From the NCBI GenBank assembly GCA_973895155.1, contig OZ316894.1, positions 6,348,234 through 6,412,233 on the forward strand: a stretch of 64,000 bases of DNA, given 5' to 3'. The notes beneath the pieces are model-generated. The model saw only the letters and a list, made by a program, of their open reading frames with translations. It was not told the origin of the DNA and did not search any database. Numbering within the stretch: the stretch's first letter is position 1; every line of letters begins with the position of its first letter. Below are positions 17,836-64,000 of this stretch, piece after piece. Position numbers and translations under genes: made by a program. This DNA is from Marsupella aquatica (lineage: Eukaryota; Plantae; Marchantiophyta).

Positions 17836-17848
17836 GCCTGCGCATGAG

Positions 17849-17990
17849 ATAGACTCTACTGTTTAGCAGATTGCACAGAAAGTAATATATATTTAGCATT
17901 TAAGGTACAAAGGCATTTAGATAGACTCTACAATTTAACAGACTGCACAGAAAGTAAAATATATTTAGCATTTAAGGTACAAAGGCATTT
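17849..17990. repeat. ~70-bp tandem duplication immediately upstream of the PHD ORF
   Basis: tagactctac...tgcacagaaagtaa.atatatttagcatttaaggtacaaaggcattt occurs twice. Confidence 0.8.
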
Positions 17991-34900: not shown

Positions 34901-37900
34901 AACCGAACCCCTCCGTACATGGGTGGGACCGGGATTGGTCTCGGGATGGGGTTTACTTCCTCCAATTGCGGAATGGACGGATCCCATGAGACTCACTTTT
35001 TATGTCTCGGTCTCGAGTTTTCGGCCTCAGGCGGTTGTTGGGCTGGTTCATGGTTACAAGGCTCTGAAATGGAAGGAGTAGCCACGGCTCCCTGCTTGGC
35101 TGGAGCCGTGTCCTCCGTCTCGACGAGTTGTTCGTGCGTTTCCTCATCCCCGACAGTAGATGTACTTGGGGTGGACTCAATGGCAGCCCTCGGGTAATTT
35201 AGGAGATGTGTTTCTCGGGTTGCTTCAACTCCGAAGACATCTTCCTCGGATAGGGACGAGATGAGTTCGATCATATTGAGTTCCTCTTCCTCCGAGGTCT
35301 CCGAATCATATTCCTCGGGTCCTTGTGGGGTTTCTCCCTGATAATCGTCCATTGCCCAGGATACCCGTACGGTGGGTTCCCCGAACCGTAGCTCCTTCTT
35401 TCCCCAATCCGTGACTACACGGCCACCGTACAGCCACGGCCTGCCCAGAAGAACCGGATAAGAGGAGGGACGAACCGGCCTCATGACTAAGAAGTTGAGA
35501 TAGAACTCTACCCCTCCCACCAGAGTGAGCACTCGTGTGAGCGTGCCTAATGGGAGGACCCTTGCCCCGTTTGCTAATCTGATAGCTCGGGCCGTGGGTT
35601 GATACGTGAGGTATCCTAACTTGACTGACGTTTCTTCAGTCATGATGTTGACTCCCGCTCCTCCGTCTACAAGGACCATCTTGATGGTACAGTTATTAAT
35701 TTCGATCGAGATGTCCGGCGCTCCAAGGTCCTCGCATATCATGTTGCAGTCCGCACTCCCAACTCGGGGTAGTCTTCTCCTTCGGCGACCCATGAGCAAC
35801 TCCCTCAGTTGTCGTCTGTACTGTGGGTTGTTCTGCAGCAGTTGCCCCACCGTCGCTGTAACCGGGCAACTCTTCACGTCCTCCTTAATATCATAGTCCT
35901 CCTTTGTTTCTTTCGTTGGCTGCTGCTTGGCTTCCTCTTGTTTATCTTGCTTTTCTTGCTCCTGACGCCGGGCTGTCTCGGCTGCTTTGATGTCCTTATC
36001 GATTGCCTTCTGGTATTCCCGAGCTTCGTAAGCCTCCAGCTATTTCTTTACCAATTCTTCGATGCGGGGGAAAAATAGCTTCGGGTCGTCCCGTCGGTAG
36101 TCATCGTCCTTTTCCGGGGGTATATTTATCGCTGGCTGCACTGGAGTAGTATCTTGCTTTTTCCTCCTTTTCTCCTCCGTCTTTTCTTCCTTCCGTTCGG
36201 CCCTTGTCGACACTCGGTAGCACTCGGCCTCATCCAATGGATTAGGGTGTTCCGCCACGTCCACCAGATTCACCCACTCGGTGTTGTCATCTTGCCATTC
36301 TACAGCAATCATTTGGACGACTGCATCGCTCGTGACTGGTCCAGCCTGGGCCGGTCTAGCCGCACTCGTTCGAGCAGCGATTACCAACGGACAGTTGGCC
36401 GTGGAATGAGCCTCCGTTTTGCAAACTTGACATAGTGGGGTGCCTCGACCATCTCCCTGACGTCTTGGTTCGGTGCATTCCCTTGCAAAGTGTCCTGGCT
36501 TTTCACAGTTGTAACAAACCGGGGACCGCCAAATCCCTGGCTTAGGAGGGATGCTCGGGTTACTGATAACCTGGAAACTCCGGCCATTACTTGGGTAGGG
36601 GTACGCAGTTCTACCCGCTAAATTACGCGGACCAACCGTTGAAATCTGGTACACGGAATCAGGAGGGTCCTCAAAGAAATACTCCGTGGACTCCGATTCG
36701 GGGCCCGGGTTGTCAACATCATCCAGCTCTACTTGGTGAACTCGGTTCTTCCACCTTGGGCATTCCTGCACCACATGGCCGGATTGGAAGCACTTTGAAC
36801 ACCACGCATGGGCTCGAATCTCAGATGGCTTCTTCTTCTCCACCGGCTTCTCCGCAAGATGTACTGACAGTGCTTTGAGTCGATCCGTGATTTCGTTCAG
36901 CTTGTCTGCTTCGGCAGCCTTTGGATCTGGTATCGTTCTTCGCGCCCGGGGTTTAATCTTCCCCTCCTTCTTCACTCGTCTCTTCTTCTTTTTGCTCCGG
37001 CTTTCGCTCTCCAAGTCACTTCCTGATGAACTGGAGGTAGAGGATCCGATGCTTGAAGCTGAATCCGAACTGGATTCCGTCTCGGAGTTGGACGAGGTCG
37101 AACGATGTTTCTTCTTCTTCTTCCGTTTCTTCTTCCTCTCGTCGTCCGATTCGGAGTCACTGTCACTGAAGGTTTCGTACTTACCCTTCCTGCGGCGTGC
37201 TCGCTGGCTCCGCCGGGAGTTATAGGTGGACTCCCGGTAAGTTTCAGCGCACGCTATGGCCGCCTGCATTGAAATTGGATTATTCTGGCGTACCCAGAAT
37301 TGCATATTCGTGGGCAAACCATGAAGGAACCATGTAAGCTGGAGCGCGTCTCCTGGCCTGGGCCGGATCTTGGCCGCAAGTTTCTGAAACTTCTGAATGA
37401 ACTTCCGCAGGGACTCTTTTTTTCCCATGCGAAGCTGGCCAATCTTTAATAGAGAACGTTGTTCTGATCCAATGGCACGAAACTCCTGCAGCAATGCAGC
37501 TTGGAATTGTGCCCAGGTAGTCCCGGGTGGTAACGAGTTGTACCATGGACGAGCTTCTCCCCGCATTACTCCCGGGAGGACGGTTAGCTTAATGGCGTCT
37601 TCCCCATTAGCTTTAGCAGTGGCTTCAAACTCATCCAACCATTCATCCGGATCATCCCCATGACGTCCTTTGAAAGGTCGATAATGAAATCGCGATCGTT
37701 GCGATATTTGTGGAGGCGCCTGAGCAGCGCGGGCCACCGGTGGAGCGACTGCCATAGGTGGTGGTGGTGGTGGTGGTGGTGGTGGAACCGCAGCAGGGCC
37801 GGTCGAACCGGACCCCGAAGATCCCGGGGGTATGTTCATACGTCGGGACGATTGCGAGTCCTCCGAGCCCGACGAGTCGGAGCTTGTTGTGGTTGCACTT

Positions 37901-37956
37901 TCCCGTTCGCTGGTCAATCTCCTCAAGTAAGCTGCTTGAGAACGAGTGACGGGCAT
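31957..37956 (-). CDS. gag-pol polyprotein in a single 2000-codon frame with two in-frame stops
   Basis: Gag with three CCHC knuckles; protease LVDGGAGVN; RT (DYRKLN, LDGYSGYNQI, MPFGLCNAP, FIDDF); RNase H (YVDVS, DREAL, TDHDSL); integrase (GHF...CELC, WGIDYIGP, SDRGTHF, NGMAER). ORFs 36040-37956, 34993-35877 and 31957-34965 share a frame, separated only by TAG (36040) and TGA (34993). Confidence 0.95.
31990..32004 (-). other. Putative polypurine tract
   Basis: Minus strand ...TTAAGCAGGGAGCTA directly abuts the 3' LTR; only modestly purine-rich. Confidence 0.55.
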
Positions 37957-38079: not shown

Positions 38080-41000
38080 TGTCACGTCGTAGGCTTCGGC
38101 TTTAACTCAGACTTCAGCTTAGACGGGCACATCCCTCGTAAATCTGAGGGTTCGGGCAGGAAGGGAAGCACGTAATGCACCTTATTCTAGTAAACTAGCG
38201 CTAAGTGCGCATACTGCTAAATACGGACACCTCCTAGGTATGGTTTGTGTTCCGCCGCCGGAACGTACCTTAGTCGATAGCAGGATCGACCCCGGCTTAA
38301 GGGCTTCTAAGCCTTCGTGCTGTCCGCCTTCGATCCGGATTCGATGATACAGGTCCTCAACCCGTGCTCGCAACCACTTACCCGCAGGCTGCACCCTGTG
38401 CACGTCTCGGGTAGTGCGTTCGGCCCGGCGCTGCCACCCATATACGAGAAACCCACACACATATGCGCACACATGCATACAATCTCGATTTACACGAAGG
38501 AAAAATGATGGGAAAGGATTTTTACTACAAAGGGAACATATGCGTACACTTAGTTGACACGACAGCCCTGGAATGCACAGGTTCAAGGCCAAGGGTGCAC
38601 ACTACAACGGAGCCCGGCTCCGCACTCGCCCGGCAAGCTCAGTCCTACCCCCTCCCCTTGGTACTCTGTCATTCCCAGAGGTCGGGACTCCCCGCATGTC
38701 CCGCGGATGTCCGACTCTGAAACTAAAAACCCCCCTGCCTCTACCGAGGGGTGCACTAAATACTAAGAGCCGAGGAACGGGGTGTCCTCCCGCCGAAGAT
38801 TCGCTGACCAAGGTCCTAACTAAGCTGACAGTCAGGCCGGAAAACGGCTGTGTCTTATTAGAAGATCCTAATCTACGCAGGCTGGACAGCAGGGCAGCGT
38901 TGCCGTACCTAAGGCAGGTGCCTGCCCCAAGAGCCTGACCAAGCCAATCCTAATCCTAATCTATTCCTACTCCGCCGCTAATGCCTGGCACGCTTGCCAG
39001 AGCCGCCCGAATGGGAACGGCCATCCCGCTGCCTTCGAAGCCTGTCATTGTCCGCTTTGAGGAGCTGGACCTGGTCCAGCAGAGATTCGTTCTCTCGCCT
39101 CACCGCGTCCGTCTCCTCCGCTGCCTCCTGACATGCCTCCTCCAGCTGCTGGGCGTCGCTCGCCAGTTTACTCGCCAGCTGGTCCTGCTTCTCGGCCTCG
39201 GTTTGGAGCCGCGCCATCTCGGCCTGCAGTGTGGCTATCTCCGTCGCGTCCCGCTGGGCTCGCTCCTCGGCCTCCTCCAGGTCTTTCTGCCAGGTGACAG
39301 CTTGTTTCTTCAAACTGTCAATCTGGTTCCGGAGGCGTGTAATCTCGGCCTCGTTCCCAGCTTTGGCCTGTTCGGCTAGGGCGGTAAGAGCGTACGCCTT
39401 TGCTAACAACTCATCGGCGGCTGCAACCTTGGGTCGTAGTTGCAGAAGCTCAGCCTCTTGAGCCGCCACTTCGTTCTTTAGGTACACAGACTCCACCCGG
39501 TACCGCTCTATCCTCTGAAGGGCCTCCGACTGGGCCCGCCCTGCCTTTACGACGGCAACCAACTCCTGATTGAAGAAACAGGCTACCTTCCGAGCCATGA
39601 ACTCCCCGGTATCCCGGGCAATTTGATGAGAGAAATCCCCCAGAAGCCCGTTCAGAAACGTACCCTGTACGAAGAGTTCCGGGTGGTCCAAGTTGTGCCT
39701 GTCCGGATTTGGGCACGGGCAGACATCAACACGCGCAGGGGCCGGGGCAGTGACGTCCAGCCCTGGGGACATAACGTTGGAAGGGGCCGGAGTATCCTCC
39801 TGCAGCGATGTCCGGTTCTCCGGAATTGCCACCGGCGGGTCCTTGGGAGACCCGGGTTCGGGTAAGACCTCTGCCGTACCAACTTCTGTACTTAGCCCGG
39901 CTAGTTGGGTCGCATCAACGGTTGCGACGACCGACCCCTCCGGCGCCTCCTCGGTTACGATTACAGCTATTTGTGGAGGTGGGGTGGGTGAAGCTGGCGT
40001 GTCCACTGGACTTCGGGCCTCGGGTTGGGGCCGTCTCTCCAATGCCGGAAAAACCCACCTAGCTGGGACCAGCTTTGTAACGTTGATGCGGGGAAGGGTT
40101 CGTCGATCAAACCGGGCATACCACTCAAGAATGATTTCGATGTGGCTAGCGAAATACGCCTTCCCGCCAATGTACAGCGTCTTCCTTCGCCGCTCCATCT
40201 CTTCATGGAATTTCTTAGCGAAGTACGACGCCCACTTCCTAGGTCGATAGTTCTCGACCTGGATGACCTGGGCGGCGGAGATCTTCCCCCGGGGTTCCAT
40301 CAAGTGGAGAGCGTACCTCTGGAACTCCAGCCGCTCAGCTATCTCGGGCATGAGGCAGGTCCTCATCACGAACCCGTTGTCTACTGATCCCTCTGAGGGA
40401 AAACTTGAAGATTGGTACTTGGCCCCCTTGCCCCCGGGAGCCCATGATTCGACTCGATGGTCACCTTTGGGTAACCCGAAGATCATCTTGAGCCGTTCTT
40501 CTGTGAGGGACATATTCCTTCCCCGCAGCCGAGTCTGTTGACGTACGTCGTCATAATTCTTGATGAATTCTGTCATGTCCTCCCCGTAGTACCTGCAAGT
40601 GTTCCAGGGGAGAGAGGCGAGGTGCTCAAATCCCTGAGTCTTCAGGTACACCGCATGCTTGGGATGGAGGATGTTGCTGTGAACGTTTTCCCCCATGCGA
40701 TGCATCGTTACCTTGGCTACGGCTACCGTGGCCAACGGTAACCCGGATGCACTGGCGGATTCCTTTCTCTTCTTTCCCCGTGACTGACTCGGGGAAGGTG
40801 ATACTTCCCCATCCTCCCGATCGGGCCTGGGGAGTGCCACTGCGGTTGGTAACGGGCCCGGGGCGGCCACGGTCACCATGTTGTCTGCTGGGGCCGCTCC
40901 TGGGGTCAGAGCAGGGGGTGGGGACGGTATAGTGTCGGCCCCCCGAGCGCTTGTTCCTCTGGGCCGCCTGGTCAAGGGTGGGGTAGCCTCGTCGTCATCG

Positions 41001-42086
41001 CTAAGATCTACAGCGTTGATGACGGAGCGTACCTGTGCTGGCTGGGTGATAGGTGGTGGGGTTTGGCTAGGCTGCGGCTGAGGCTGAAGCTGAAGCTGAG
41101 GTTGCATGGGCACGGGTACAGGTACGGGTACGGGTACGGGTGAGTTGGTCATGTTGGTTGATGGCCGAGTTCCCATGAAGCTCTGTAGGTGCTGGTAGAA
41201 GTTCTCCGAAGCGAGTGCGGACGCCCTTGTCGAACGGTTGGTACTGGACTCGCCGTTAATGACTGCCCGATCCTGGGCAGGGATGTGGTCGAAGTGATGT
41301 CGCTGCAGGTCGATTGTACCCGGGATATTGAAGACCTCGTCCGGAAGCCGAAGCAATGCTTCCCAGAACCCGATATATTTGTCTCCGTCAAAGAAGTACC
41401 CAGATACCTCAGCTGGTCGGTAAAGCTCGCTCTGAGACGGGTAGTCAAAGTTAAGGACGTAGTGGTGTCGTCCTGCTAGGCGGATGGCTCTCTCGTATTC
41501 GCGTTTGATCTCGTATCGGCGCGGGTTGGCGTGTTTCAATGAATCGGCCAAGTGCCTTCCGGTAGATAGGAACTGCGTCCAGAATCGAATGGCCGAGCTG
41601 GAGAGGATCGTGTGCGACATTCAGAGGAGATAGTAGTGGCGACCTAGAGAGAACGAGAGAGCTGGGGTCGAAGCTGGCGCGCGGACTGATGGACTGGTGC
41701 ACTACAAAGGGTTGGCTCCCCTTTTATACTTTGAGGGCTTGTCGATCCCCGACGTCTCCTCGACGCCCATAGGTTGAACCGCTCACGCTTGTGGTGTACC
41801 GGCCACTCCGCCGGTCTGAGTCAGCGTGCGTCAGTGGCCGCTTCCTTAAGTTCGTTATACGGACCCGAGGGAGGGGCCCCTCCATGCTCATAACCCGGGT
41901 GTGCGAATAGCGACCCGCCGCCAGCCCGAACCTGAAGTCCCCCTTATTGCCTAATGATGTCCTACCCCTAATGATTACCTAAATATTGTCGTTATGCTAA
42001 TAATAGCGGCCTAAGACCCACCTAACGCGCGTGCCGAGCGCAGTTAGACTGAATCACTCATTAACCGCCGTACCGGCGGTGTCACA
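38080..42086 (-). repeat. 5' LTR (4007 bp)
   Basis: Copy of 27981-31989, followed on the minus strand by the PBS and gag. Confidence 0.97.
38978..41620 (-). CDS. LTR-encoded 880-aa protein (5' LTR copy)
   Basis: Intact ORF differing from the 3' copy at six residues; TATAAAA at 41722-41728. Confidence 0.85.
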   Translation of the reverse strand: MSHTILSSSAIRFWTQFLSTGRHLADSLKHANPRRYEIKREYERAIRLAGRHHYVLNFDYPSQSELYRPAEVSGYFFDGDKYIGFWEALLRLPDEVFNIPGTIDLQRHHFDHIPAQDRAVINGESSTNRSTRASALASENFYQHLQSFMGTRPSTNMTNSPVPVPVPVPVPMQPQLQLQPQPQPSQTPPPITQPAQVRSVINAVDLSDDDEATPPLTRRPRGTSARGADTIPSPPPALTPGAAPADNMVTVAAPGPLPTAVALPRPDREDGEVSPSPSQSRGKKRKESASASGLPLATVAVAKVTMHRMGENVHSNILHPKHAVYLKTQGFEHLASLPWNTCRYYGEDMTEFIKNYDDVRQQTRLRGRNMSLTEERLKMIFGLPKGDHRVESWAPGGKGAKYQSSSFPSEGSVDNGFVMRTCLMPEIAERLEFQRYALHLMEPRGKISAAQVIQVENYRPRKWASYFAKKFHEEMERRRKTLYIGGKAYFASHIEIILEWYARFDRRTLPRINVTKLVPARWVFPALERRPQPEARSPVDTPASPTPPPQIAVIVTEEAPEGSVVATVDATQLAGLSTEVGTAEVLPEPGSPKDPPVAIPENRTSLQEDTPAPSNVMSPGLDVTAPAPARVDVCPCPNPDRHNLDHPELFVQGTFLNGLLGDFSHQIARDTGEFMARKVACFFNQELVAVVKAGRAQSEALQRIERYRVESVYLKNEVAAQEAELLQLRPKVAAADELLAKAYALTALAEQAKAGNEAEITRLRNQIDSLKKQAVTWQKDLEEAEERAQRDATEIATLQAEMARLQTEAEKQDQLASKLASDAQQLEEACQEAAEETDAVRRENESLLDQVQLLKADNDRLRRQRDGRSHSGGSGKRARH

Positions 42087-47558: not shown

Positions 47559-48709
47559 ATGTCTTCATCTTCTGAGATCTCCACCACAGATTCTTCCTCC
47601 TCCGATGAAGATATACCACCTCCTCCTCAACCTCACACGACTGCACCTCCTCCTCGTGGTCCACCCCGTCAGCTTTGCCAATGTGCCAAATGCATGGGTC
47701 AGGTTTCCCAAAAGTCCTATATATGCATCCAGCATATTGAGAGATATGGACGTTACGGACGTCATACAACAGGGGCTTCCTCATCCCATGTGGTAAGTGT
47801 TTACGCCTTAGTTTCTACCCTATTTCCACATCGCAATGGTGAAGGTTTTTAATTTCACACCTCTTGTTGTTTGTTTTGGTTTGGGTGGAATAGGTATCTA
47901 TTAGGCCTAGACCTGCGGCATCAGCACCTTATGTCCAATCACAAGGTGTTCTAGATGCTATAGGCAATGCATTCTCACAAGCCTTGGGTCTAGCAACAGC
48001 CCCCTCTAGTCCTAGGGCAGTTGGGGGTGAGCCTGTTGTCCCAAGAGGGAGAAAGCGTTCCAAGAGACGGCCCCGAGGGGATACTGATTTGTACAAGGCA
48101 GTGGTTACCGGTAGGTGGGGTGATTGTGAGTTTACTGGCAGATGTGTTCCTATCATCAAGGACTGGGATCCCCAGACTCTTGGTTTGCCACAAGAGCTTT
48201 CCTATGGTGAGGAGGTAGAGGTTTGGGGAAGACGTTGGGTTATCAAACCTTCCACACTTGGGGATAGACATGGCTATGGAGTTTTTGCTTGTGAAGACAT
48301 CATTGTGGATACCGAGAGTGGTAGTGGTGGACGCAGTCGAGAAGGACCTACGTTGTTTCCTTATGGTGGACCCATCTACAAGAGAAGACATTGGAACATG
48401 ATCCTTGCACAACATCCTCAGTGGAAGACTTATGCCTTGGAGTTAGATACTTTTGATGGAAACACTAGGAGGTATAGTGAGCAGCGGGTGATAGATGGGG
48501 ACCCCATACGAACTGGGAATATAGCTGGTTTCATAAACAATACTGTGGGGACTCACTCCAAGCGTAGGCAAAATTGTGAGTGGGTTTTCATTGAGGGTCC
48601 TCCACCAGCCCCTTATGGCCAGACATATCATCATGACCATTGTCTGGTTGTAGCTACTAGGACCATTCACTCAGGTGATGAGTTGTTTACTCACTATGTG
48701 TGGGATTAG
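47559..48709 (+). CDS. Zn-finger plus SET-domain protein (exons 47559-47792 and 47894-48709)
   Basis: Exon 1: CQCAKC...CIQHIERYG. Exon 2: IKPSTLG...GYGVFACEDI, FPYGG, YAL, IDGD...GNIAGFINN, N.EW, VVATRTIHSGDELFTHY, i.e. SET motifs. A phase-0 GT-AG intron restores one open frame. Confidence 0.85.
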
Positions 48710-48852: not shown

Positions 48853-51800
48853 AATGTGCGACCCTCTCAAAATATGTTACCGCGGAGATTGAGAGCAGCA
48901 TATCGGGAAATGGGTATGCCGGAAGAAGGACAAGGCTCTGAGTCACATTCCTCATCAAGTGACAATGGAAGCAACAACCCTGATCGCAATGTACCCAGAA
49001 CATATGAACAGGTTATTGATGACCAAGATAGAGCCATGGATGATTTTATGGTTGATTGGTTTGGTGTTGACGTCCCTGGTGATGATGCTGAGGTGTCTGC
49101 TGATCAAGGAGGTCATGTGCCCCCCAATGATCCACGACCAAGACATACCCCCGAGGGACAGCGCCAATGGGAGGAAGCAGAGGAACATGCCCGAACTCCT
49201 ATCTATGAGGGTGCTCGATTGAGTCATCTTTCGGCTATCTTGGGGTTGATGAATCTACAGGCCAAACACAAGGCAAGCAATGCCTTGTTATCTGATATGT
49301 TTGCACTTTGCCATGACCTTATGTTACCTTCTGGCAATGTGTTTCCAGGAACTTGGAAGGAGGCCAAGCGTGTTCTCTCATCAATTGGCATGGAATATCA
49401 TATCATTCATGCATGTGTGAATGATTGCATGTTATTTCATGGGGCCAATGAGAAGAAGACACAGTGTACTGAATGTCATGAGCCACGGTATGACCCCAAC
49501 ATGATTACAAAGAAGGTGCCAAGAAAAGCTGTTTGTTGGTTTCCCATCATTCCTCGGTTGTTGCACATGTACAGGTGTTCTGATTTGGCAGAGTTGATGG
49601 TATGGCATAAGACTCATCGATCAGAGCCTGGTGTTATGCGGTTGCCAATTGACTCTCCTGCAGTCAAATATATTGAGGAAACATGGCCAGACTTTGCACA
49701 TGATCCTCGTCATGTGAGGTTGGGATTGGCATCTGATGGGGTTAGTCCTCATGCCCTTGTAGGCAAGGGAAGACCTACATCAGTTTGGCCTGTGGTTGTG
49801 ATGAATTACAACCTTCCACCATGGCTATCCATGAAGAAGGGGTTCCTCTTGCTGTCTTTGATTATTCCAGGTCCAAAAAAGGTGAAGAACTTTGACACTT
49901 ATTTGGCACTATTGATCGGAGAACTCCAAAAACTGTGGGGTGGAGTGTGGGCATATGATGGCAGGAAAAATACAGGAGGCATTCCACGTGTATTTAAATT
50001 GAGAGGGGTAGTTTGTTGGACAATGCATGACTATCCTGGTAAGATGACTTTTTGACCATATGCCACCCTTCTTTGATATGCTCTTTAATATACTTGTTTG
50101 TCATGTGACAATCCTAACATTTAGTCTGGTTTTATTTTTGGTGTAACCAGGGTTTGGCTTTGTCTCTGGATTGCAAACTCAGGGGTACAAAGTTTGCTCC
50201 ACCTGTGGTCCACAATTGCAAGATATGGCAATTTGGTCCCCATGGCTTAGGAAGATTGTTTACATTGGGCATACAAAGTTTCTTCCGATGGGGCATGAGA
50301 TGAGGTCTGACCCACTTTTATTTTCCTCCTTTGACATGCCCCTTGGTGATATGCAGGAAATTCCGGAACCAACAACTTTTGGGCATTGGAAGTCACTAGC
50401 TGATAGGGTGGCAGACCCTGATGATCCCCTCACCTTTGATGGTACTGGGTTGACGAGGTCCAGGAGTATACTAGCCAGTTTGCCCTATTGGTCAGAGTTG
50501 AAGATCCGCCATCTTTTAGACCCCATGCACATAGAGGGAAATGTGGGGAAGGCGTTGATAGCTCATTTTTATGGGGAGAAGGACACTAACTTCAGGGAGG
50601 CATGTGAAGAGTTGGAAATGCATCCAGATGTATGGGTACAAGTTGATCCTGCCACAGGTTTGGAACATCGTCCTTCTGCTCCTTGGGTGCTTAGTGTTGG
50701 CCAAAGACGTGAATTCCGGAATCGTATAGGGGAGATGCGGTTTCCTACAGGCTATGGTGCCAATTTGAGGAAAGCTTTTGGGATGGAGGACAATCACAAA
50801 TGGCCACGGTATCTCAAGACACATGACTATCACCGCTTATTGCAGCATATATTGCCAGTGGCAATTATAGGGTTGGGGACCAAAGAAGTGCAAGATGCCA
50901 TTTGGTCATTGGGTCGTTTGTTGAGATGGATATGCTCAAAGGAGATATATGTGGAAGAGATTCCTGGAATGGAGGTATTGGCTGCTGAGGTGGTTTGCAA
51001 GTTGGAGAAGGCCCTCCCTCCTTCCTTCTTTGATTGTCAGGTTCATTTACTTGTGCATCTTGTGAGGGAGGTTGCCATTGCTGGTCTAGTTCATTGTCGA
51101 TGGATGTACTGGCTTGAGCATTACATGTCAGTCTTGAAGGCTTATGTACGTAACCGTGCACGAGTGGAGGGAAGCATAGCTACAGGATACTTGGCTACAG
51201 AGAGCATGTTTTATTGTAGTAACATCTTGGCCACCATTGATCGGACTTTACCACGTACTTGGATGGAGGAGAGGCAAGAGGAGGAGGACCGTTTAACAGG
51301 AGCAACAAAAACATGCATGCTTACATCAACAGAGTGGACACAGTTGAATACATTCATGTTGAGTAATAGCAATGTCATGGATGAATGGAGGGAGTTTTAT
51401 GACAATGCCAAAAGAATGAGTCAAAGGGCAAGGATTTTTCCTAAGTTGCATGAGTTTATGAAGGAAAATTTGGTTGAGTTGGATGGGCATTTTGGCACAA
51501 GGAGGAGATGTCTCACAGTTTCCTACTATGACAAATGACATTCGGACCATTGTTCATGGCCCTTTGAGAGTGGTAACATCCAAGACGGCCATGTGGACCC
51601 AAGGGAGACACTTCAGCTTTCACTAGTTCCTAACCTTGTTTTCCATATTCATGTACTACTACTTAAGATATAGTAATCATTTTACTTAAGATAAGTGTGT
51701 TTTTCTCTTTTGGTATGAAAGGTTCCTCATAACATGATTAGTGTTTTTTGTGTAGTAGTAACAATATATGGGTCTTGTTAATTCAGGATTTCTTCCCTTG

Positions 51801-53409: not shown

Positions 53410-54654
53410 ATGTCTTCTTCCGAGAGTTCAGAGTCAGATTCTGACTCAACCTCTTCATCTTCTGAGGGGGACATTCCTCCCCCCCTCCGAGGCTTCAATG
53501 TCCTCCTCCTCTAGGACCTATTCCATGTTGGTGTGTCCGATGTAAAGGCATGGTGGTTTGTCAAGCCTGGGAAGCCATTGAGCATATTGAGAACTATGGC
53601 AGACACGAGGGCAATTTACCAGTATATTCTACTCGCGAGGTATGCACAATTAATTGCTCTTGGAGACATTGACATGTACAATTTGCCACATTTCACCCAT
53701 ACATTTATTAATTGTTGGTTTTTTTGTGATTGAATAGGTGCCTCATAGGACCCCTCCTCCATTGGTCTCTAATGACTTATGGGTAAATACGCTTTTGGCT
53801 GGTGCAAGAGAGTTGCTTGCATCATCATCAGCTCCCTCTCCATCTAGCCCCCCCGTGTTCAGCCAGAGAGTGTAGCAGTTCCATCTAGGGTTGGACGCAC
53901 CCAAGCACGTTCCCAGAGACAACATTGCCGTTATGAACCCTTGCCAGGCACTCATGAGACCGAGGAGCAAGTTGTAGACCGTACTCTTAGAGTGCCACCA
54001 GGAGAGGACTATGTGGAAGTGGAAGGGAGGTTGGGGTTGTCATATGTCACCGAGAAGGCATTGATAGTGTTGAAGGATTTCTCGTCTGAGAGATTCAAAA
54101 TACCCCCTGGCCTAACCACTGATACCCCTATCCACATATGGGGTCACCAATGGATAGTGAAGGCGTCTTCCCTTGGCCCTGACATAGGATTTGGGGTGTT
54201 TGCCTTGGAGGACATTGTGGTCCCGCCCAAGCCGTGGCCCCGAGGTTATGATGGTGAGCACCTATTTCCATACATTGGTCCTGTGTATACTTCAAAAGGT
54301 TGGAACATTCTATTGCGCCAACACCCATCGTGGGGTGTCTATGCATTGCAAATGGATTCTGATCTAGATGAGCTCATACGGAGGCCTTGGCATTCTCGGA
54401 TGATTGATGGCGACCCTGTTCGCTCCGATAATATAGCTGGGTACATCAATAGTACTCGTGGTAGAGGGAGAGGACTTAGGCCTAATGTAGACTGGATTCA
54501 GATATTTGGTCCACCTAGAGAGCCTTACTATGTAAAACATATGGATGATCATGTCATGACTGTAGCCATTACAACCATTAGGGCTGGCCAGGAGTTGTTT
54601 TGTGACTATGAGTGGGATAGGCCCAAGAAAGCATTGCTTTCTCGACGCATGTAG
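53410..54654 (+). pseudogene. Second Zn-finger plus SET gene (CACTA-3); SET domain open, upstream part frameshifted
   Basis: Exon 1 MSSSESS...CWCVRC...IEHIENYGRH, donor 53640, acceptor 53737. SET: VKASSLG..IGFGVFALEDI, FPYIG, YAL, IDGD...NIAGYINS, PNVDW, VAITTIRAGQELFCDY. Confidence 0.85.
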
Positions 54655-54887
54655 GGCAGACATATATGTATATACCACCTTTTTGTTTAACATAAAATAC
54701 ATGATACAGGTTTTCAAACTAAATTGGTTAGTTGTGTAAGTCAATCTTTGATCAAGGTTTGAAAGTATACTAGTAGAATGTGTAAAGAGAATTGTAATTT
54801 TGCGGGGAAACCAAAAAGCCTATACCTTTAAACACTTGTCTCATTGTGGCCCTTCTAATATAATATGTATGTTCGTGAAATGTTAGA

Positions 54888-55674
54888 ATGCATATGTTCA
54901 ACCAGATATGGGGGTATTATCACGAGCAATGCGGCAACACCTTGTTGAGGCCATGGGTGATTGGCGTAGGGCTCAAGCATCAGAGAATGAAGATGCCCCT
55001 CCTGAGCATGTGTCGATCTAATGCCACCGAAGATAGACTTGAGGAGGAGAGGGCCATGCATGATCTTATGCACCAGTTCTATGATGTGGAGGATGGTGAC
55101 CATGATATGGGTGATGCATTTGACACCAATGCACATCCTCATGGTGACAATCCTTCACAAGGTTCTTCCTCTAGACAATGGGAGGAAGCTCGTGACCATG
55201 CGCAAACACAAATTTTTGAGGGGTCACAACTATCTCGGCTCTCAGGAATAATGTTATTGTTGAACTTGCAGCAAAGACATGGAGCAAGCAATCTCCTTCT
55301 TGATGATCTCTTCAGGACCTTGCATAGTCATATTTTGCCAGAAGGGAACTACTTGCCTAGTTCATGGAAAGCGGCAAAAAAGGTGTTGAAATCCATAGGC
55401 CTCAAATACGAAGTCATACATGCTTGTGTGAATGATTGTGTTCTGTTCAGGGGGGAACACAAAGATGCCACTACATGTCCTACATGTGACCACCTGAGGT
55501 ATCGAGAGGACATGCTGACTGGAAAAGTAGCACAGAGGTTCATGAGGTATTTTCCTCTTATCCCCAGATTACGGCACCAGTACCGATGTGCAGAGTTGGC
55601 TGAGTATATGGTGTGGCATTCCAAGAACCGGTCAGATATGAGTTCAGATCGGCCAACCATGCGTATGATGGTGG
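54888..55674 (+). pseudogene. CACTA-3 TnpD, 5' part (interrupted by the Sola-like element)
   Basis: QWEEARDHAQTQIFEGSQLSRL, IHACVNDCVLF, YFPLIPRL; homologous to 48856-50055. Confidence 0.9.
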
Positions 55675-56211
55675 AACAAGAAGCCTTAAATGATGAGTAA
55701 CAAGCCCATACTTTAGGAACTCTAGCCAAAAAATCAGAAAAACAACGAAAAAGTAAAAAAAAATGCAAAAATTAGCACCTATTTTAGAGCAAAAATATGG
55801 AGCGAACAAAATATGACATAAACTAGCTATGTTTTGACACCTAAAAATGACCAAATTCATCTGAAGTTACATTCCACCAATAAATGATCTCAAATACAAC
55901 ACTATTATCTACAATGGTCTCACAATTACACGAGGTGTCTTTTGAAACAACAACTCAATCACCTCCAAAAGCCATTGTCATTTAAAAACCAGAAAATAAA
56001 TTACTACAACTTAACCTGATACACATTATTGTGAAAAGAAGACAAGGAGAATAGAAATGACACCATCTAATTGAATTGAAACACAACCCACTAAGATAAT
56101 ATTAAACTACAAATTTCTCAAGAAACTTTAACCATGAATTCATGAATAAGTGGTAAAGGCAAGTTATCCATGTTTTTCAATGGTAATGTCACAAACAATA
56201 ACTACTTTTCA

Positions 56212-59200
56212 TTACTCAGATCCAGAAGTCCTCAATTCTTGAAACGAAATATCCCTAGATTTATCTCCTAGCGGGGTTCTAGTTGATCCATTCTCTTGTT
56301 CTTGCTCTTTCTCTTCTGCCAAAAATTCAGTCAATCGGATTTTGATTCGATCTACTGTCTTTTTGTACAATGTATCAGATTTTGTCAACATGAAGTTGTA
56401 AGCAAAAACAGTCGTTGAAGATAAATCAAGCTCTTGGTGAAACCATATTGGTTTCAAAGTTCCTTTCCCACGACCACTTTTCTTCTTTTCGTAGTTTAAG
56501 ACTTCTGGTAAGTACTTGGCTTTCCAAGGATCTGACCCGGTTTTTGTAGCATGCCATAAAACATAAATCATTTTTGGAATGTTGAACTCATCGCGCTGGT
56601 CAATTCTTTCCACCTTGGCCACCCAAAATGTTTCCGATTCTTCTCCAGCAACAGAAATATAAGTGTTGACTTCAAGATCCGAAAAGTCTCCTTCCATATT
56701 CTCCTTCTCTGCATCTATCTTTCCTTGATTCCGATAAGGACCCACGTATATATCTCTGGTAGGTCCGTATACTCTCTCTTCAATTTCCTCTTCATTGACA
56801 AGGACTCTGGGAACTTCAGCAGCAACAGCAATCTCCCTTTGGGAGCGTGGCCATTGAAAAGGGAAAATCAATGGTCTTTGATCAAGGAGCAAATATTTAT
56901 TCAATTCCCGTTGCTCTTCAAAAAACATTCTCCACCAGTTCACTTCCTCCTCTGAGAATAAAGTTTCAACTGCAAGTATTCCCTTTTGAATCTCATTTAA
57001 CGAATCATCCATCTCCTTCAAAGTCATTCTTGAAGAACTAGACATATTTGGTTGAGTCCTTGTAACGTTCTTATCCCCCTTTTTGAAAAGGGGTAATCCG
57101 GGAGCACAACCCATCACCTTTTCTGGCTCCTCTTCCCTCAAAAATTTCACGCCTCCGTCAGGTTTCCAAGTTGAGTCCGTGGAAAACTTCTTCCCCCATT
57201 GGGTTGGAACTTGATTTTCCAACTTGTCAAATGCAAATTTGTACTGGTGGTGGAAGGTAACATTTCAAATCCTTTCAATGACTAAAGGTGGATTTGAGAA
57301 GGCATATTGACGGAAATCATATGTTTCCTTTAAAAGAGTGATATTTGGTTGGGGTTGATATGATTCACAAATAATATCACATAGGCTTTCGTATGTGAAT
57401 GCCTTAAACCTTGCTAGTCGTTTAGAAAATCGACTGAACATTTGATCTATTTGGTCGTGTGTGTGTCCAACCAACAAAAATCCTAGTTTGATTTTCCGAA
57501 AAACCTTTCTTCGAATCAACATATGAAGATAGGCAAAGAGTAAATTATTTTTATTTTCTCTACTGGTATTATCAAGTTGAAGATAGAGAACAGGCGGCAA
57601 GCCACCAGGCTTTTCTTCCCATTCGTGAAACACCCTTTGCAGGATTGTGACTGTCAAGTTTCCATCATTATGCAATACAGGATAATTAAGAAACACTCTT
57701 GAAAATAGTGCACCATTGAAAACCAGGCATCCGACAACGTGCATTTAGATCAAACATGTTTCGTCCACCGATTTTGGGGGCCGCGGCCAATGAGGCAACC
57801 TTGTCTTCTTCTGATCCATCCCATCAATGACAACTCCCAAATATTTATCAGAATTTGAAAAACATTTCTTACGATGCTTCGCGAGTTTCTCACGTTCTTT
57901 GGATTGTTGGTCTCTATGTTTTTGTAACATAATTTCCCCTCGCCCTGGAAAAACAACTTGTTAGTTTCTTAAAAAAAAATTAGAAATCATGTGTTAAGCC
58001 ATATTCTTGAAACAAAAACTTGTCAAACTTGTAAGTAACTTACTCTTTTCGGTCTCCGAGACAGCTTTGTCCCGAATTGATTTGAACTCCTCGCAATCCG
58101 CGCAAGCACTGAATCGATTGACTGGAGGAATCTTCACATGACCAAATTCTTGAACCCAAACTTTCAAGAATTGTCGATAGGATATTTTTGAAGATTCATC
58201 AATCTTGGCATAGTTGGAGTCGTAGATCTTCCATACCTCCAGCTTTGAATAATTATCCGGTAAATGTGAAACTTCTTTATTTGGCAATGTTTCCACGCGT
58301 GTCTCAAAAAACGACCTAAGCCAACTGACCAAGACTAATCTTTTAACAGATGGAGGGCGTCCAACTGGTTTAGAATATCCTAAGTCTTGGTTGTCTAATT
58401 TCAAAATTCTATTTAATCTATGATTGCCAACGCAAAATATAAGCTTGAAAGCTTTCCGACAAATACTCTTTTGACCAAACGTGTAAGATATAGTCTGCCT
58501 CCCTCCTTCATTTCCATCTCGCTTTATAAGCCACTGCAAAGATAAAGATCGATCCTGAGATTTCTGCCTCAAAAATTTAGAACGCGCCTCACGAATTTCT
58601 TTTGGAGATAGACTTAGGAGACAATGACTCTGACAACAGTACTTACTATTTGTTTTCTTGATATCCTCCTCTTTCAACTTTGTTTCACACAAAGTGGCGT
58701 TGCTCGTACGTTTGTAACGACTAGATGCCACCGGAACATCATCATCCTCCCCACTCTCCGAAGACTCGCTTTCATTCGATGATGAAATGGTCACCAACAT
58801 TTGCTTCTGAACATGCCTAGATTCCAGACCTGCAGCCTTCGGAGATGGAGGCTCTTCCTTCACTCTATGCACCCTTGGAATACCTGGGCGTATTTCAGAA
58901 ATCCCTCCATTACCGTGTAGGGACCCTTTCAATATTTTCCTAGGGTCCCTCTCCACCAGGTTGGTTTCCCTGTTTGAGTTTCCGTGACTTGATCCGCTCC
59001 CTGCCCCAACACCATGACTCCTAGGTAAAACTGAGGAACGCACATTAGAATTCTTTTCTGGAATACTTTTCAATAACACTGGTCGTCTAGTTTCTTCCCT
59101 CATCCCCCTGTGAAATGTTTCCGACGGTGGCTTACCAAAGGTTTTACTTTTTGGCATTTGCTTCAGCCGCTGAACACTTTGGAGACTGCAAAAATCTCTG

Positions 59201-59610
59201 TCATTTTCCCCACTTAGTGCCTTCTTCGTCTTTCCAAATCCAGTCTTCATGAATTCATGAGACCGTTTCCCAGACATCCAAATAGGCATTGAACCTTCCA
59301 GATTACTCCCCAATTTGTCCTTTGTTGGTGACAAAAGAGATACAACTTGACGTCCAGGGGGACCAATACTCTCCAAGGAGTTAGAGGAGCTCCCTGACCT
59401 CTCTTTACCACCGACCAATGATTTCTTCCCACTAATTGCAAGTCGTAAAGGACTACGTTTTAACTTGCTCATAGGGGTGGGGGGTGGCATATCTAAAACA
59501 GTAGTTATTCCAGGGATATCTGGGCCAACCACTGTGCAGGGGCCATCCGGCAATGAAACATCATCAGAAACTCCATCTGAATAATCATCTGATTCGTAAC
59601 ACGCCGCCAT
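56212..59610 (-). pseudogene. Sola-type (DUF7869-like) transposase; intron 58043-57945; two premature stops
   Basis: CCQSHCL, ICRKAF...F.V, F..CADC, VIDGMDQ, LYLQLDNTSRENKN, FLLVGHTHDQIDQMFS. Pieces 57745-57944, 57265-57744 and 56212-57264 are in frame across TAA (57745) and TGA (57265). Confidence 0.85.
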
Positions 59611-60155
59611 TGGAAAAACTAGTGCAAATTGACAAGAAACTCAGAAAATCAGTAAAATCTAACAAATCTTCTCAAAATAATGACCAAGAGTCATGAATAA
59701 ACGAGCCTATTTATAGTTTTTCACGGATTCTTGGGACTTTTTAACTTCAAAAATATCAAATATTCATGAAATTTGCAAGCTTTTTCCCGTTAATACCCCG
59801 AAATATTCATGAATAATTGGCCCAAAAACATTGATTTATCATGATTCTGGGTTAATTTTACTAAGTCGCGCCTGATCCGTGATTAGTATGTATAACCAAG
59901 GAACACGGGGCAGCCCATTCATTTTCACTCAATGTCATTTGGATTTCCTTTGTAAAAGAGTGAAAAACAATCTCGCTATCCAATTTTGTGCCATTTTCAG
60001 CACTCATCGGCGACGTGTCGCGAGTTGTCGCGGTCGCACTTCATTTCGACCTTGGTTTAGGTAGTAATTTAGGCCCTGGGTGATTTCTTCACGTCACCCC
60101 CCTCCGAACCCTATTTTAAATACCCTTCTGCATCACCGAGGTGTACAAGCAAAGA

Positions 60156-60273
60156 GAGAGGAGACTCCCTTCATGAATTCATGAAGGTCGGAGCGAGAGG
60201 GAGACTCCCTTCATGAATTCATGAAGGTCGGAGCGAGAGGGAGACTCCCTTCATGAATTCATGATAGGAGTCC
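60156..60273. repeat. Three 40-bp tandem units containing palindromes
   Basis: Unit agagggagactcccttcatgaattcatgaaggtcggagcg contains AGGGAG-A-CTCCCT and the perfect 20-bp palindrome CCTTCATGAATTCATGAAGG. Confidence 0.92.
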
Positions 60274-60429
60274 TGGGGTGGCCGAGAGCGTTGTTAGATC
60301 CGTAAGGACACGGTTTTAGTAGCCATTTGTTGGCACATTCCTTGGTTCTGTGGCACTTTGTCTCGCAGGTTGGGGTTGAAGTGGACTGATTTTGTGGTAT
60401 GTTCTCAGGTTTGAAGATCAGGCAAAAAC

Positions 60430-63400
60430 ATGACAATGTCGTAGGAAGAGCTGGTGGATGACATCTTTTCGCGCCATCCTTTGACGGACTTCCACAACTC
60501 ATCCTGGACGATTTCCTTAGGGACGGAAACATGGAAGAAGCCCTTCCTAATGCTGTGTGTATTTGAGGGGCTTCCATCGGGGGCATTAGGGTGGGTAAAT
60601 TATGGCCGCATCGATGTATTTCGACGGGGCGACGAAGTTGTGAACATGTTGATCACAACGAAGGAAACATCAACTTTGATTGTCGTGGATGTGGAGAGGT
60701 TTTCTGGAACGGCTGCCACCTGCTATCTCGATGAGGACATCGATAGCATCATTGAGACTGTCAAGTCTCTTTCGAGTGAGGAACGTTACCACGACATCGC
60801 GGGAAAGATTTCCGGTTTTGTGTTTGAATTTCACGCTAGCACTTTAAAGAGTGCAATCCGAAAATCAAGAGAGATTCTCCGGAAAAGGTCGGCAGAGAAG
60901 GGAGTAAGTCGTCCACCCAAATCTGGGGCTTCCGGTGTTCCTTCTGGATCGAGGCCTAGCATTTTACCCAATGATATTTTGACCGTGGTAGCCCCTACAA
61001 CCTCCCGGGAAGCAGCAGCATCTGGAGGGGGATCTCAAGTTGGCAGATCATCCCAGGGAACGGCTTTGACTGGTGGGTCGGCACAAGGTACGACTGGAAC
61101 TCGCATTTCTTCAAAGAAGCGACCTGCTATGACTCCTGAGCCTACCGAGCCCAGTGCTACAAAGTCAAAAAAGAAGACTTTGGAGAAAATTCCAACGCAT
61201 TTGGAGCAAAAGGCTCAATCAATGTCAATGGATGCACGGGTATTGTACCAAGAGGAGATTCTGGGAAGATGTGGTGTTCAAGAGGAGACCGTGACCGTTG
61301 ACATTGGTCAACTTTACCCTCCAGTGAGAGAGAAGGCTGTGGGCTTGCCCATTTACCAGGTCCGACACATCCAACCATATTTCTTGACCCAATTGACCTT
61401 GCGGATGAAGACTGTAGGTGCCAGTCCACTTGCAGCTCCGTTTGTCCTCTTGGTGGATCCGAAGGAGTGTGCTACTAGGCAAGACTTTGATTTTTCAAGG
61501 AAAGCTGATTACCATTATTATGTGATTGGGGGCAACCATTCAGCCTGTGCCAAAGCAGACCTTGCTCTTCAGTTCCCTAACAACAAGGCATTTCGGAGAG
61601 TGCAATCTTGGATATTTGCGGGATTGAGTGTGCAAGAGGCAAGAAACCTTGCGTGGAGTCACAATATTGATTCTGAATTTCGACAACAGATGACGACAAT
61701 CCAGAGAGTAAATTATATTCACATGAGATTTGTTGAGAATGGATTGTCGTCCAACCAGGATTTCAAGAAAGAGTGTGCTACTGAAATCAATCTCAAGGAT
61801 TGGGGTGTACGAAAGGATGTTGAGGTTCTTAATGCCAATGATAACCTATTTCAGTTGGCATTCCGACAAGATCCTGTGTGGTCATTTGTGAGGCAGATTT
61901 GTGACAAGTGGGAGATGTGTGAGATCAAAGGTCAAAAAGGAGACAAAGGCAAGAAGAAAGTCTCTAAGTCTGGAGATGCCAAATTGCCTTATGAGGACAT
62001 GAAATTAACAGAGTGGAGACACATGCAGGCCTTGAAAGATCCTGATATGATTTGCCCAGTGTTACAGAGAGTTCTTACTAAAGAACTCTCTTTACAGGAA
62101 ATGGGTCACGAATTTACTCGACACAAATTTCAGATGCAGGTGCAGAAGGCCTTCCTCACGTGTCTACACGAGGAGAGTTGGTCAGGTTGTAAAACCAAGT
62201 ACCCTGAGCATTGCACAGACAATGTGCTTAAGAATTTTGTACCTGTTTTCCAGACATGGGTAAGATTCTGTCACCTTTCTTCGAATGATTGTTTGAATTC
62301 ATTTAATATTTGGAATCCTTGTTTCTAATTCTACAGTTCCTTTTTGTAGAAAGATACCACCTCCCGGAAAAAGAAGGGAGATGAGGAAGGCAAAGATCTC
62401 AAGTCATTCCCGGACAAATTCAATGCGCATATTGTGCAAGCCCAAAATTGGCTATCCATGAAAACTTCTAGTCGGCAAACCCAAGAGGGGGAACTTCATC
62501 CAAATTCGTTTGAGCATCCAGAGTTTGGTGATCACTATGATATTTTTACTTAAGATGCTCAGCGATTACATGAGGTGGTTCCGGGTCGGGCTTACACATT
62601 AGCTTTAGTGGATATTCCCTACGGGTTTGCATTGCCTGGATGTCTTCATGAAGACACTATTGGATGGGGAACTGAGGAGATCACAAAAATGGTCCAATCG
62701 TTCAAGGTGGCTACTACTGCAAAGTTGTGGCGTATTATCATTCACCACAGCCTTGACCAATATGAGGCCATCAAGACCGTTTTGAAAGCGGAGTGTAATG
62801 GAGGGTTCCAGAATTGTGTGTGGTAAGAAATATTTGTTTTTGAAAAAAACAACTATTAGTTATTCATGATTTCATGAACCATGTTTCTCAATTTAAATAA
62901 CTCCTTGACTTTTTGTGACTTTTCAGGGTTAAGGATAATGTGAAGAATGCTGGTGGACCAAGATTGAACAGCAACTTTGAGTGCTTTACAATTGGCTTTC
63001 ACAGCCAGGATGGTAAACGGTCATTGGAGCACTTCAATTTTGACACAAATGAATCAAGGAACAATGTGGTTGTATGCGCAGCTGTGACTAAGAAGCTGAA
63101 ACACAACGGGGATAACAAGGCAGTGAATGTTTATCAGAAACCACGTGCATTGTTAGATTGGGAAGTGAGTCATTTTAGTCAGGTTGGAGACTGGGTTTTG
63201 GATATTTGTTCAGGATCAGGGACTGGGACAACCTCCTCCTTGGCCATGGGGAGACATTGCGTTGCCATTGAGATTGACGAGCGACAGAGCAGTGTGTTGA
63301 AAGGGAGGATTCTTAACCTTGCAGATAACATTGAAGAGGAAGACGGACAGGGGGAGATGGATGAGGAGAGTGAGGAAGACATTCCTCAGGCCGGAGAGGA

Positions 63401-63488
63401 TAGCGTGGTTGACGATGCCACAATTGTTCCAGAATTGACGACAGGGACTTCCGGAACCGAGGAAGGGGAAGCGGTCCCTTTGGATTAG
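60430..63488 (+). pseudogene. ParB/Srx-like domain fused to a beta-class N6/N4 DNA methyltransferase (exons 60430-62259, 62350-62822, 62927-63488; ~954 aa; two premature stops)
   Basis: ParB-like VR.I....L..L...M.....APFVLLV...YYVIGGNHS. MTase motif IV LALVDIPYG precedes W.K, QKPRALL and motif I GDWVLDICSGSGT....AMGRHCVAIEID (beta order). Both GT-AG introns keep the frame. Stops: TAG at 60442 and TAA at 62551. Confidence 0.85.
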
Positions 63489-63809
63489 ACTAGATAAATA
63501 GAGGGACTCGTAGCATTTGAAACCACTTGGGCTTAAGTTGGGTTATATTTTGTAAAACTTTGAGTTTGACTTAAACTCTGATCGATGAGTTTGATTTTGA
63601 TTACTTTTATAAAGTGCATATTTCAAGGTTTATACAATTGTGAGAATATCATATAAGATATGCTTAGATTTTGGTGGTAAAATTCTCTTGAGTCTAGTTT
63701 GGAAAATACATACCATTTTTTGGTGGTTTTTTGGTATACACTTTTTAATATCATGAAGATTTTGAAAAGAGAAATAAGGCTTTGGACTCATCCCTTAAGG
63801 CTTCTTGTT

Positions 63810-64000
63810 GTGGACTCACCTGCAAATAGGTTTGTGGAGGACCGATGGGGTGACTTCAAGACAGACCCATATCATGTATGACTAGGTTTGGCATCAGATG
63901 GGATCAGCCCCTTTGCATTGGCCGGGAAGGCCCAACCATACTCAGTTTGGCCAGTAGTCCTTACAAATTACAACATCCCTCCATGGATGGCCATGAAGAA
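63810..64000 (+). pseudogene. CACTA-3 TnpD continuation
   Basis: VDSPANRFVEDRWGDFKTDPYHV*LGLASDGISPF...SVWPVVLTNYNIPPWMAMK. Confidence 0.92.

Follow-up and report, generated by a model that had tools for sequence, protein, structure and literature searches.

A decayed Sola-like transposon of the liverwort Marsupella aquatica carries a conserved, spliced gene joining a ParB-like domain to a predicted DNA amino-methyltransferase

Why would a cut-and-paste transposon of a plant carry, divergently from its transposase gene, a gene whose product appears to combine a ParB-like domain with a DNA methyltransferase (MTase)? This question is raised by an 8.1-kb element at positions 55675–63809 of a 64,000-nucleotide stretch of the liverwort Marsupella aquatica (assembly GCA_973895155.1, contig OZ316894.1, positions 6,348,234 to 6,412,233 of the forward strand; hereafter, the window). 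A preliminary description of this locus viewed it as a Sola-type transposon equipped to write a DNA mark other than 5-methylcytosine, possibly for self-marking. We found that the element is a decayed Sola-like cut-and-paste transposon, a dead copy with four premature stop codons, whose cargo gene travels with the transposase and whose cargo protein, MTase core included, is under purifying selection. Further, we infer binding, catalysis and a benefit to the element; that is, we consider it probable that a ParB-type dimer would bind palindromes within the element and that the fused enzyme would methylate the element that encodes it.

The ends of the element can be placed to the nucleotide. Its terminal inverted repeats (TIRs) are 84% complementary over 32 bp, with the first 15 nucleotides matching exactly, and form the longest of the 51 inverted pairs found in positions 54000–64000; they are flanked by a GTGG target-site duplication (TSD). 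The element interrupts a CACTA Tnp2 gene, and excising it together with one GTGG restores a continuous Tnp2 frame, whereas retaining both GTGG copies leaves the frame broken. A paralogue at positions 48853–50052 of the window aligns with the restored frame on both sides of the junction (49% over 276 amino acids, E 9e-100), the right flank within the window being only 191 bp long. Hence, the insertion is real and its ends are exact, and the boundaries originally proposed for an element with two divergent genes were right.

The minus-strand gene (1099 codons and one intron, whose acceptor was picked from three in-frame candidates by comparison with homologues) encodes the transposase. It matches the Pfam family DUF7869, which we take to be the Sola1 transposase domain, at 164.5 bits (E 2.9e-48), and its DDD triad (D46, D130 and D172) is invariant in all 12 aligned transposase rows; a literature search on DUF7869 found no paper. 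The length of the TSD is that given for Sola, 4 bp, in passages of PMC3627910 and of the supplement of PMC12477816. The AWWT target preference named as a hallmark of Sola1 (PMC3845634) was found at none of five sites, i.e., the GTGG TSD and the four bases past the common 3' end of each of four related cargo copies (L008, L009, L012 and L017, below), and for this reason we file the element as Sola-like rather than as canonical Sola1, which refines the original assignment without overturning it. As had been noted, each gene carries two premature stops: codons 589 (TAA, 57745–57747) and 749 (TGA, 57265–57267) of the transposase and codons 5 and 678 of the cargo gene, the latter free of frameshifts. 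Relatives carry Q, R, Q and K at these positions, and from their Q and R codons three of the four stops would fit C-to-T decay. The accompanying suggestion that intact copies may exist has lost ground, since the related metagenome locus L001 has one stop in the compared region and a second one, L002, has a TAG two codons past its likely start.

The plus-strand cargo gene encodes 954 amino acids in three exons separated by GT-AG introns of 90 and 104 nucleotides, and the motifs by which it had been recognized (IGGNHS, DIPY, QKP, LDICSGSGT and AIEID) all fall within the spliced frame. Both introns occupy identical positions and phases in L001 and L002, which share 65–67% amino-acid identity with the window cargo and have DIPY in common with it, and nine of the 12 homologues found by a word search among 4044 candidates end just past the intron-1 donor. 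An extra intron is present in the 5' part of the gene in L001 (2085–2311) and L002 (1034–1125), at approximate coordinates, and is absent from the window copy. The TAG at codon 5 was also considered as a splice acceptor, L002 also reading ATG-TCG-TAG, and was provisionally set aside: relatives have Gln there and the L002 stop aligns three codons off. The first 150 residues of the cargo (60445–60880, plus strand) are conserved as a domain among close relatives (WTVSLG...YGRIDAV), one for which Pfam has no match.

Exon 3 matches the Pfam family N6_N4_Mtase (PF01555) at 35.3 bits against a cut-off of 26.7, and eight of the 42 proteins scanned also exceed the cut-off for this family. The order of the motifs is permuted, with motif IV (DIPY, exon 2) preceding motif I (LDICSGSG, exon 3), which binds S-adenosylmethionine (SAM). 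A profile of the MTase family (alignment A3, 22 rows) run against the PDB placed enzymes that make N6-methyladenine (6mA) first (M.MboIIA at E 3.8e-14, M1.HpyAVI, M.RsrI, M.BceJIV and CcrM at 1.9e-11) and those that make N4-methylcytosine (4mC) later (N4CMT at 1e-5, M.PvuII at 0.076). For the structure, the relative P0066, full-length in a single frame, was modelled in place of the window protein (predicted local distance difference test, pLDDT, 79) and compared with known structures by Z score as well as with Foldseek: it aligns with CcrM at Z 24.0 (root-mean-square deviation, rmsd, 3.0; 228 aligned residues), with N4CMT at Z 20.2 and with PvuII at 19.7. As first proposed, therefore, the MTase half is a beta-class amino-MTase as judged from the profiles and from a predicted fold that belongs to P0066 rather than to the window protein. 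In motif IV of the window the Asp, second Pro and Tyr are kept and the first Pro is replaced; from this Asp motif and the profile and structure scores, we estimate the predicted product to be about twice as likely 6mA as 4mC.

The second half of exon 1 is firmly predicted, from a model with pLDDT 83, to hold a ParB/Srx-fold N-domain. A Foldseek search of the PDB with this model gave 13 matches at E ≤ 0.001 (best E 2.2e-5), and 12 of 12 among the matches listed are ParB/Noc; in a VIA-align comparison with 48,161 chains, all eight rows with Z ≥ 5 belong to the ParB/Srx superfamily (best PadC, Z 9.0, rmsd 2.9, 94 aligned), and a BFVD structure search matched the model to phage ParB proteins. The ParB-like domain of the preliminary description is thus borne out at the level of structure. 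At the level of sequence, Pfam gave no match for exon 1 and none to ParB or DUF3723 among 15 homologues of the ParB region, and a PDB profile search with alignment A1 returned noise only. A separate and unconfirmed lead is the language-model look-alike of positions 61225–62259 (plus strand) in the ESM Atlas, which is DUF3723 (score 0.96, 22–99% of members); we take DUF3723 to be a recurrent gene of fungal Starships, which would hint, also without confirmation, at a ParB-like element protein.

A full scan for the cargo counted 234 homologues with E ≤ 0.001. Among the 150 listed, host names were taken for 30, and these include Chara braunii, Riccia sorocarpa, Adiantum nelumboides and Ginkgo biloba, with Ptychodera, Actinia, Exaiptasia and Clastostelium as more distant hosts; Calypogeia fissa, another host, emerged separately. 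Five proteins from a hemichordate, sea anemones and an amoeba (P0159, P0190, P0192, P0129 and P0146) keep the ParB half and have a degenerate motif IV. A metagenome scan added 17 loci (L001–L017) out of 184 candidate stretches. The ratio of nonsynonymous to synonymous substitution (dN/dS) of the cargo, a check that had been proposed at the outset, is 0.04–0.15 where computable; by NG86, it stands at 0.07–0.12 for the MTase core and at 0.06 for the ParB region when L001 is compared with L002. These values are rough because synonymous sites are near saturation (pS 0.66–0.79); they show that the cargo is conserved and under purifying selection.

That the cargo gene travels with the transposase is shown by its neighbors. 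In L001, a divergent open reading frame (ORF) that opens with the N-terminus of the window transposase, recognized by eye, lies head-to-head with the cargo, and in Riccia the genes R1sor_010795 (DUF7869) and R1sor_010796 (ParB-MTase) have consecutive tags on one chromosome. Two further transposase/cargo pairs lie, as we infer, each on a single contig, of 8829 and 8915 bp. Across the four pairs, the transposases and the cargo genes fall in a like order of distance from the window (73/52/39% and 67/34/24%), which is suggestive only. Full-length tblastn gave no transposase match in the flanks of L002–L017, a search that also missed the divergent N-terminus in L001, and the few named rows contained no adjacent transposase/cargo tags for Chara or Adiantum.

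A tree of 34 ParB regions, in which the branching order among land-plant groups is unsettled, recovers supported host groups, namely Chara; Ginkgo with the AT-rich loci; Adiantum; Riccia; and Calypogeia with the window, Calypogeia being the nearest named row to the latter, as would suit a leafy-liverwort host. This grouping by host and the conservation of the introns in relatives agree with the long eukaryotic residence originally proposed. The idea that the element is a vehicle for spreading such enzymes in plants is weakened by the same grouping, as old vertical descent fits at least as well and no domesticated copy is shown. Mobility is not limited to the lineage of the window: four AT-rich cargo copies that are 90–97% identical (L008, L009, L012 and L017) stop abruptly at a common 3' boundary some 830 bp past the stop codon (at 3731–3762 in L008, 4612–4643 in L009, 4227–4256 in L012 and, on the minus strand, near 3722 in L017), with TTGTT (TTGAT in L012) as at the right end of the window element, after which their flanks are unrelated, which indicates that the Ginkgo-allied clade is also mobile. 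Pattern scans, which cover close matches only, found no close cargo relative in candidate stretches of viral contigs (0/9, 0/65, 0/6 and 0/7) or prokaryotic genomes (0/94), and phage MTases match only the MTase half of the cargo, at 23–29%.

What, then, might the ParB-like half read? The 14-bp palindrome TCATG-N4-CATGA, absent from the preliminary description, has five exact copies in the element and none in the other 55.9 kb of the window, and the exact counts in the element, L001 and L002 (5, 4 and 3) compare with shuffled means of 0.004, 0.016 and 0.002, although three of the five window copies sit in one 40-bp tandem array and are therefore not independent. Copies are located upstream of the cargo and in intron 2 in the window element, L001 and L002 alike, and in the 5' transposase region in the window element and L001. 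The spacer differs, being AATT or ATTT in the window, ATAT or ATTT in L001 and CTAG in L002. We regard TCATG-N4-CATGA as a candidate parS-like site of the cargo protein, as far as its sequence and placement can tell.

In the mechanism that we favor, a dimeric ParB-type protein would read two TCATG half-sites much as parS is read, the tethered MTase would methylate nearby adenines (6mA being likely, 4mC less likely), and the methyl mark would help the element stay transcribed or would regulate its two divergent promoters. Several observations weigh against this mechanism. The match to a DNA-binding domain is weak, with Z 3.3–4.5 for those of KorB, ParB and SopB and Foldseek rmsd of 8–15 Å. The position that we take to be that of the nucleotide-binding arginine of the ParB GxxR motif is Ser in the window (GGNHS), with Arg in only two of 34 rows, and for this reason the cargo is not filed as a ParB/Spo0J CTPase clamp. 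Motif IV is not the canonical DPPY, with DFPY, DLPY, DAPY and DIPH in relatives, and has degenerated in the homologues from animals and amoeba. The palindrome has no exact copy in any of the 15 AT-rich cargo loci (L003–L017), and no common palindrome was evident in the six of them scanned; an adjacent transposase tag was found for one of four Riccia cargo tags, among 120 transposase matches listed of 177; and the dN/dS values are rough, as stated above. The margin of 6mA over 4mC is modest (Z 24.0 vs. 20.2), and repeated specificity switches have occurred in the MTase family, according to passages of PMC8885841. Finally, the DAM methyltransferases of retrotransposons produced no 6mA in Escherichia coli, and streptophytes are described as having neither abundant 6mA nor AMT1-linked DAM long terminal repeat (LTR) retrotransposons (sections of 10.64898/2026.05.21.726589), which together make the benefit of a 6mA mark in plants uncertain. 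The wider scenario, in which a Sola-like lineage carried a ParB-guided, palindrome-addressed 6mA writer through the streptophytes, from charophytes to liverworts, ferns and gymnosperms, and this writer is active in land plants, is tenable but on balance doubtful.

Alternatively, the fusion might be a sequence-specific DNA-binding regulator or transposition cofactor acting on the palindromes, its MTase fold being retained to dimerise or to contact DNA while catalysis is slight or absent, and binding would then autoregulate the divergent promoters or bridge DNA. A motif IV that departs from the canonical form and has decayed in the animal homologues, the clustering of palindromes upstream of the cargo gene and the inactivity of transposon-borne DAMs in a heterologous test (parts of 10.64898/2026.05.21.726589) all suit such a protein. 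We nevertheless consider it unlikely, as the motif IV Asp, QKP and the SAM-binding motif are kept across the plant homologues, dN/dS in the MTase core is 0.07–0.12, and four more distant homologues have the canonical DPPY. We give slightly less credence still to an MTase that is active but unguided. The transposase or a host factor would then read the palindrome, or the palindrome would itself be the enzyme target (it contains two CATG), and the ParB part would be a nucleotide-binding or nuclease-like module, as at phage packaging loci. This would accommodate the weak match to a DNA-binding domain and the lack of the palindrome in the AT-rich clade, and has a prokaryotic analogue in the phage ParB-MTases near terminase genes, which align with the family MTase at a probability of 97.9%. 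Sites of transposases are usually subterminal, though, and these palindromes are internal; their conserved half-sites and variable spacer fit a dimeric binder, and the best Foldseek matches are ParB/Noc chains that cover both the N-domain and the DNA-binding domain. As for a host gene captured passively (a Pack-TE, TE being a transposable element), a misassembly or bacterial contamination, the four stops of the window copy might be cited in favor, yet such an origin is highly improbable and already largely refuted by the clean way in which the element entered a CACTA gene of plant type, the spliceosomal introns that relatives share, purifying selection on the cargo, transposase/cargo linkage in other species and the lack of any close prokaryotic (0/94) or viral (0/9) relative by pattern scan.

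The favored mechanism of palindrome-guided methylation is open to direct assay, for binding as well as for methylation, and nanopore or single-molecule real-time (SMRT) data of Riccia, Calypogeia, Chara, Adiantum and Ginkgo can be examined. If active, the cargo protein would be an enzyme that generates 6mA (or 4mC) locally in plant genomes, and possibly a tool for site-directed methylation. The coordinates of the features are collected in Table 1.

Table 1. Features of the transposon and its insertion site, in window coordinates
Feature	Positions	Strand	Remarks
Split CACTA Tnp2 gene (insertion target, outside the element)	55029..55670 (left part)	+	resumes at 63814-64000
Left TSD	55671..55674		GTGG, flanks left TIR
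Left TIR	55675..55706	+	32 nt, 5'-AACAAG...
Transposase exon 2, DUF7869	56212..57944	-	DDD core DGMD / LDN / GHTHDQID
Transposase intron	57945..58043	-	GT-AG, 99 nt
Transposase exon 1	58044..59610	-	starts MAACYE, as does the divergent ORF of L001
Palindrome inside transposase exon 1	59247..59260		copies in the matching region of L001
Three 40-bp tandem units upstream of cargo gene	60160..60279		palindrome in each, at 60171, 60211, 60251
Cargo exon 1	60430..62259	+	conserved unnamed N-terminal domain, low-complexity linker, ParB-like region; premature TAG 60442-44
Predicted ParB/Srx-fold N-domain of cargo	61264..61662	+	GGNHS at 61528-42; then helical region, possibly a DNA-binding domain
Cargo intron 1	62260..62349	+	phase 0, kept in relatives
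Cargo exon 2	62350..62822	+	linker and N-half of MTase; motif IV DIPY 62611-22; premature TAA 62551-53
Cargo intron 2	62823..62926	+	phase 2; palindrome at 62864-77
Cargo exon 3	62927..63488	+	C-half of MTase, QKP, motif I LDICSGSG 63198-221, acidic tail
Right TIR	63778..63809	-	32 nt
Right TSD	63810..63813		GTGG, flanks right TIR

Elsewhere in the window, ORFs with a SET domain (PF00856, 29.4 and 27.5 bits) at 47894–48709 and 53848–54654 lie directly upstream of two CACTA Tnp2 genes; they may be cargo of CACTA elements, including the one into which the transposon described above inserted. Direct repeats of 4.0 kb (27981–31989 and 38080–42086, 99.7% identical) surround a gag-pol region (31957–37956), each with an intact ORF of 880 amino acids that has a coiled-coil end and no clear Pfam family; the whole arrangement is either a recent Gypsy-type insertion whose LTRs each contain an ORF, or a structure of LTRs in tandem. 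An open frame of 1086 amino acids at 12860–16120 (minus strand), with no Pfam match, has a layout like that of the 880-amino-acid ORF, and a PHD-finger ORF lies amid transposon sequence at 17155–17862 (minus strand; PHD-1st_NSD, E 4e-5, below cut-off).

With respect to known systems, the novelty initially attached to the locus is reduced, because both the ParB-MTase cargo design and the idea of self-marking are already in print for brown and red algae (passages of PMC12477816 and 10.1101/2025.02.11.637652). The Ectocarpus element Sola1-1_Ec32, 21.5 kb long, has an opposite-strand gene for a ParB-like and N4/N6 MTase protein of 1104 amino acids, and its authors put forward accessory proteins, as a class, that would bind the element encoding them and modify it; the same passages of PMC12477816 mention neither a binding site nor a selection test nor homologues in plants. 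It resembles the window element, in described architecture rather than by sequence comparison, in its Sola transposase, the opposite-strand gene, the 4-bp TSD and termini starting with AAC (AACCG there, AACAA here), and differs in belonging to a brown alga rather than a land plant, in its length (21.5 vs. 8.1 kb) and in its TIRs (282 vs. 32 bp). A preprint on Bostrychia describes Plavaka elements of red algae in which ParB genes adjoin arrays of inverted repeats and which also have a PF01555 gene, and parS-like self-binding was proposed (10.1101/2025.02.11.637652, in part). These elements, with the accessory genes PAG2/PAG3, are likewise cut-and-paste transposons with a PF01555 MTase, a ParB-like protein and repeats next to the ParB gene, but have an EnSpm/Plavaka transposase and, on separate genes, ParB-2OG oxygenase and MTase-SET fusions. 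According to the passages of these papers, the algal cargo was noted but never tested.

The phage ParB-N6_N4_MTase fusions, such as gp16 of Streptococcus phage Javan93, share the order of ParB followed by beta-class MTase (MTase half, hhalign 97.9%, E 5e-13); unlike the cargo, their ParB half does not align at the sequence level, they have no long helical insert and no introns, and they adjoin terminase genes rather than sitting in a TIR element. N4CMT of bdelloids and MpDN4MT1 of Marchantia are also bacterial-type amino-MTases in eukaryotes (sections of PMC8885841, PMC10406627 and 10.1101/2021.02.12.428880), and N4CMT has the same beta fold as P0066 (Z 20.2). The kinship with these domesticated 4mC writers suggested in the preliminary description is weakened, as they are host genes with SPPY or TSPPY and no ParB (N4CMT having a chromodomain), whereas the transposon-borne cargo family carries D-x-P-Y/H and comes nearer in score to the 6mA enzymes. 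The DAM-bearing DIRS and LTR retrotransposons (parts of 10.64898/2026.05.21.726589) and virus-borne Mariners (parts of PMC3627910) encode DNA MTases with a proposed pro-expression role, as in our model, but belong to another MTase family (NPP) and other transposon classes and have no ParB, and DAM-LTRs are reported absent from streptophytes. Our literature search found no land-plant report of a ParB-MTase cargo, with subscription papers, Repbase Reports, Iyer 2011, Bao 2009 and bioRxiv supplements, which could hold one, outside its coverage; section 8 of Iyer 2016 lists no such streptophyte clade. What is new here is the streptophyte lineage, a compact land-plant element, evidence of selection on the enzyme domain and a defined candidate 14-bp site. 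A plant parallel in strategy is VANDAL, whose protein VANC is an accessory protein of a plant DNA transposon aimed at its own sequence, as in our model. VANC causes loss of 5-methylcytosine and has no MTase or ParB domain. If the cargo described here is active, plant DNA transposons would have a second epigenetic strategy directed at their own sequence, next to that of VANDAL.

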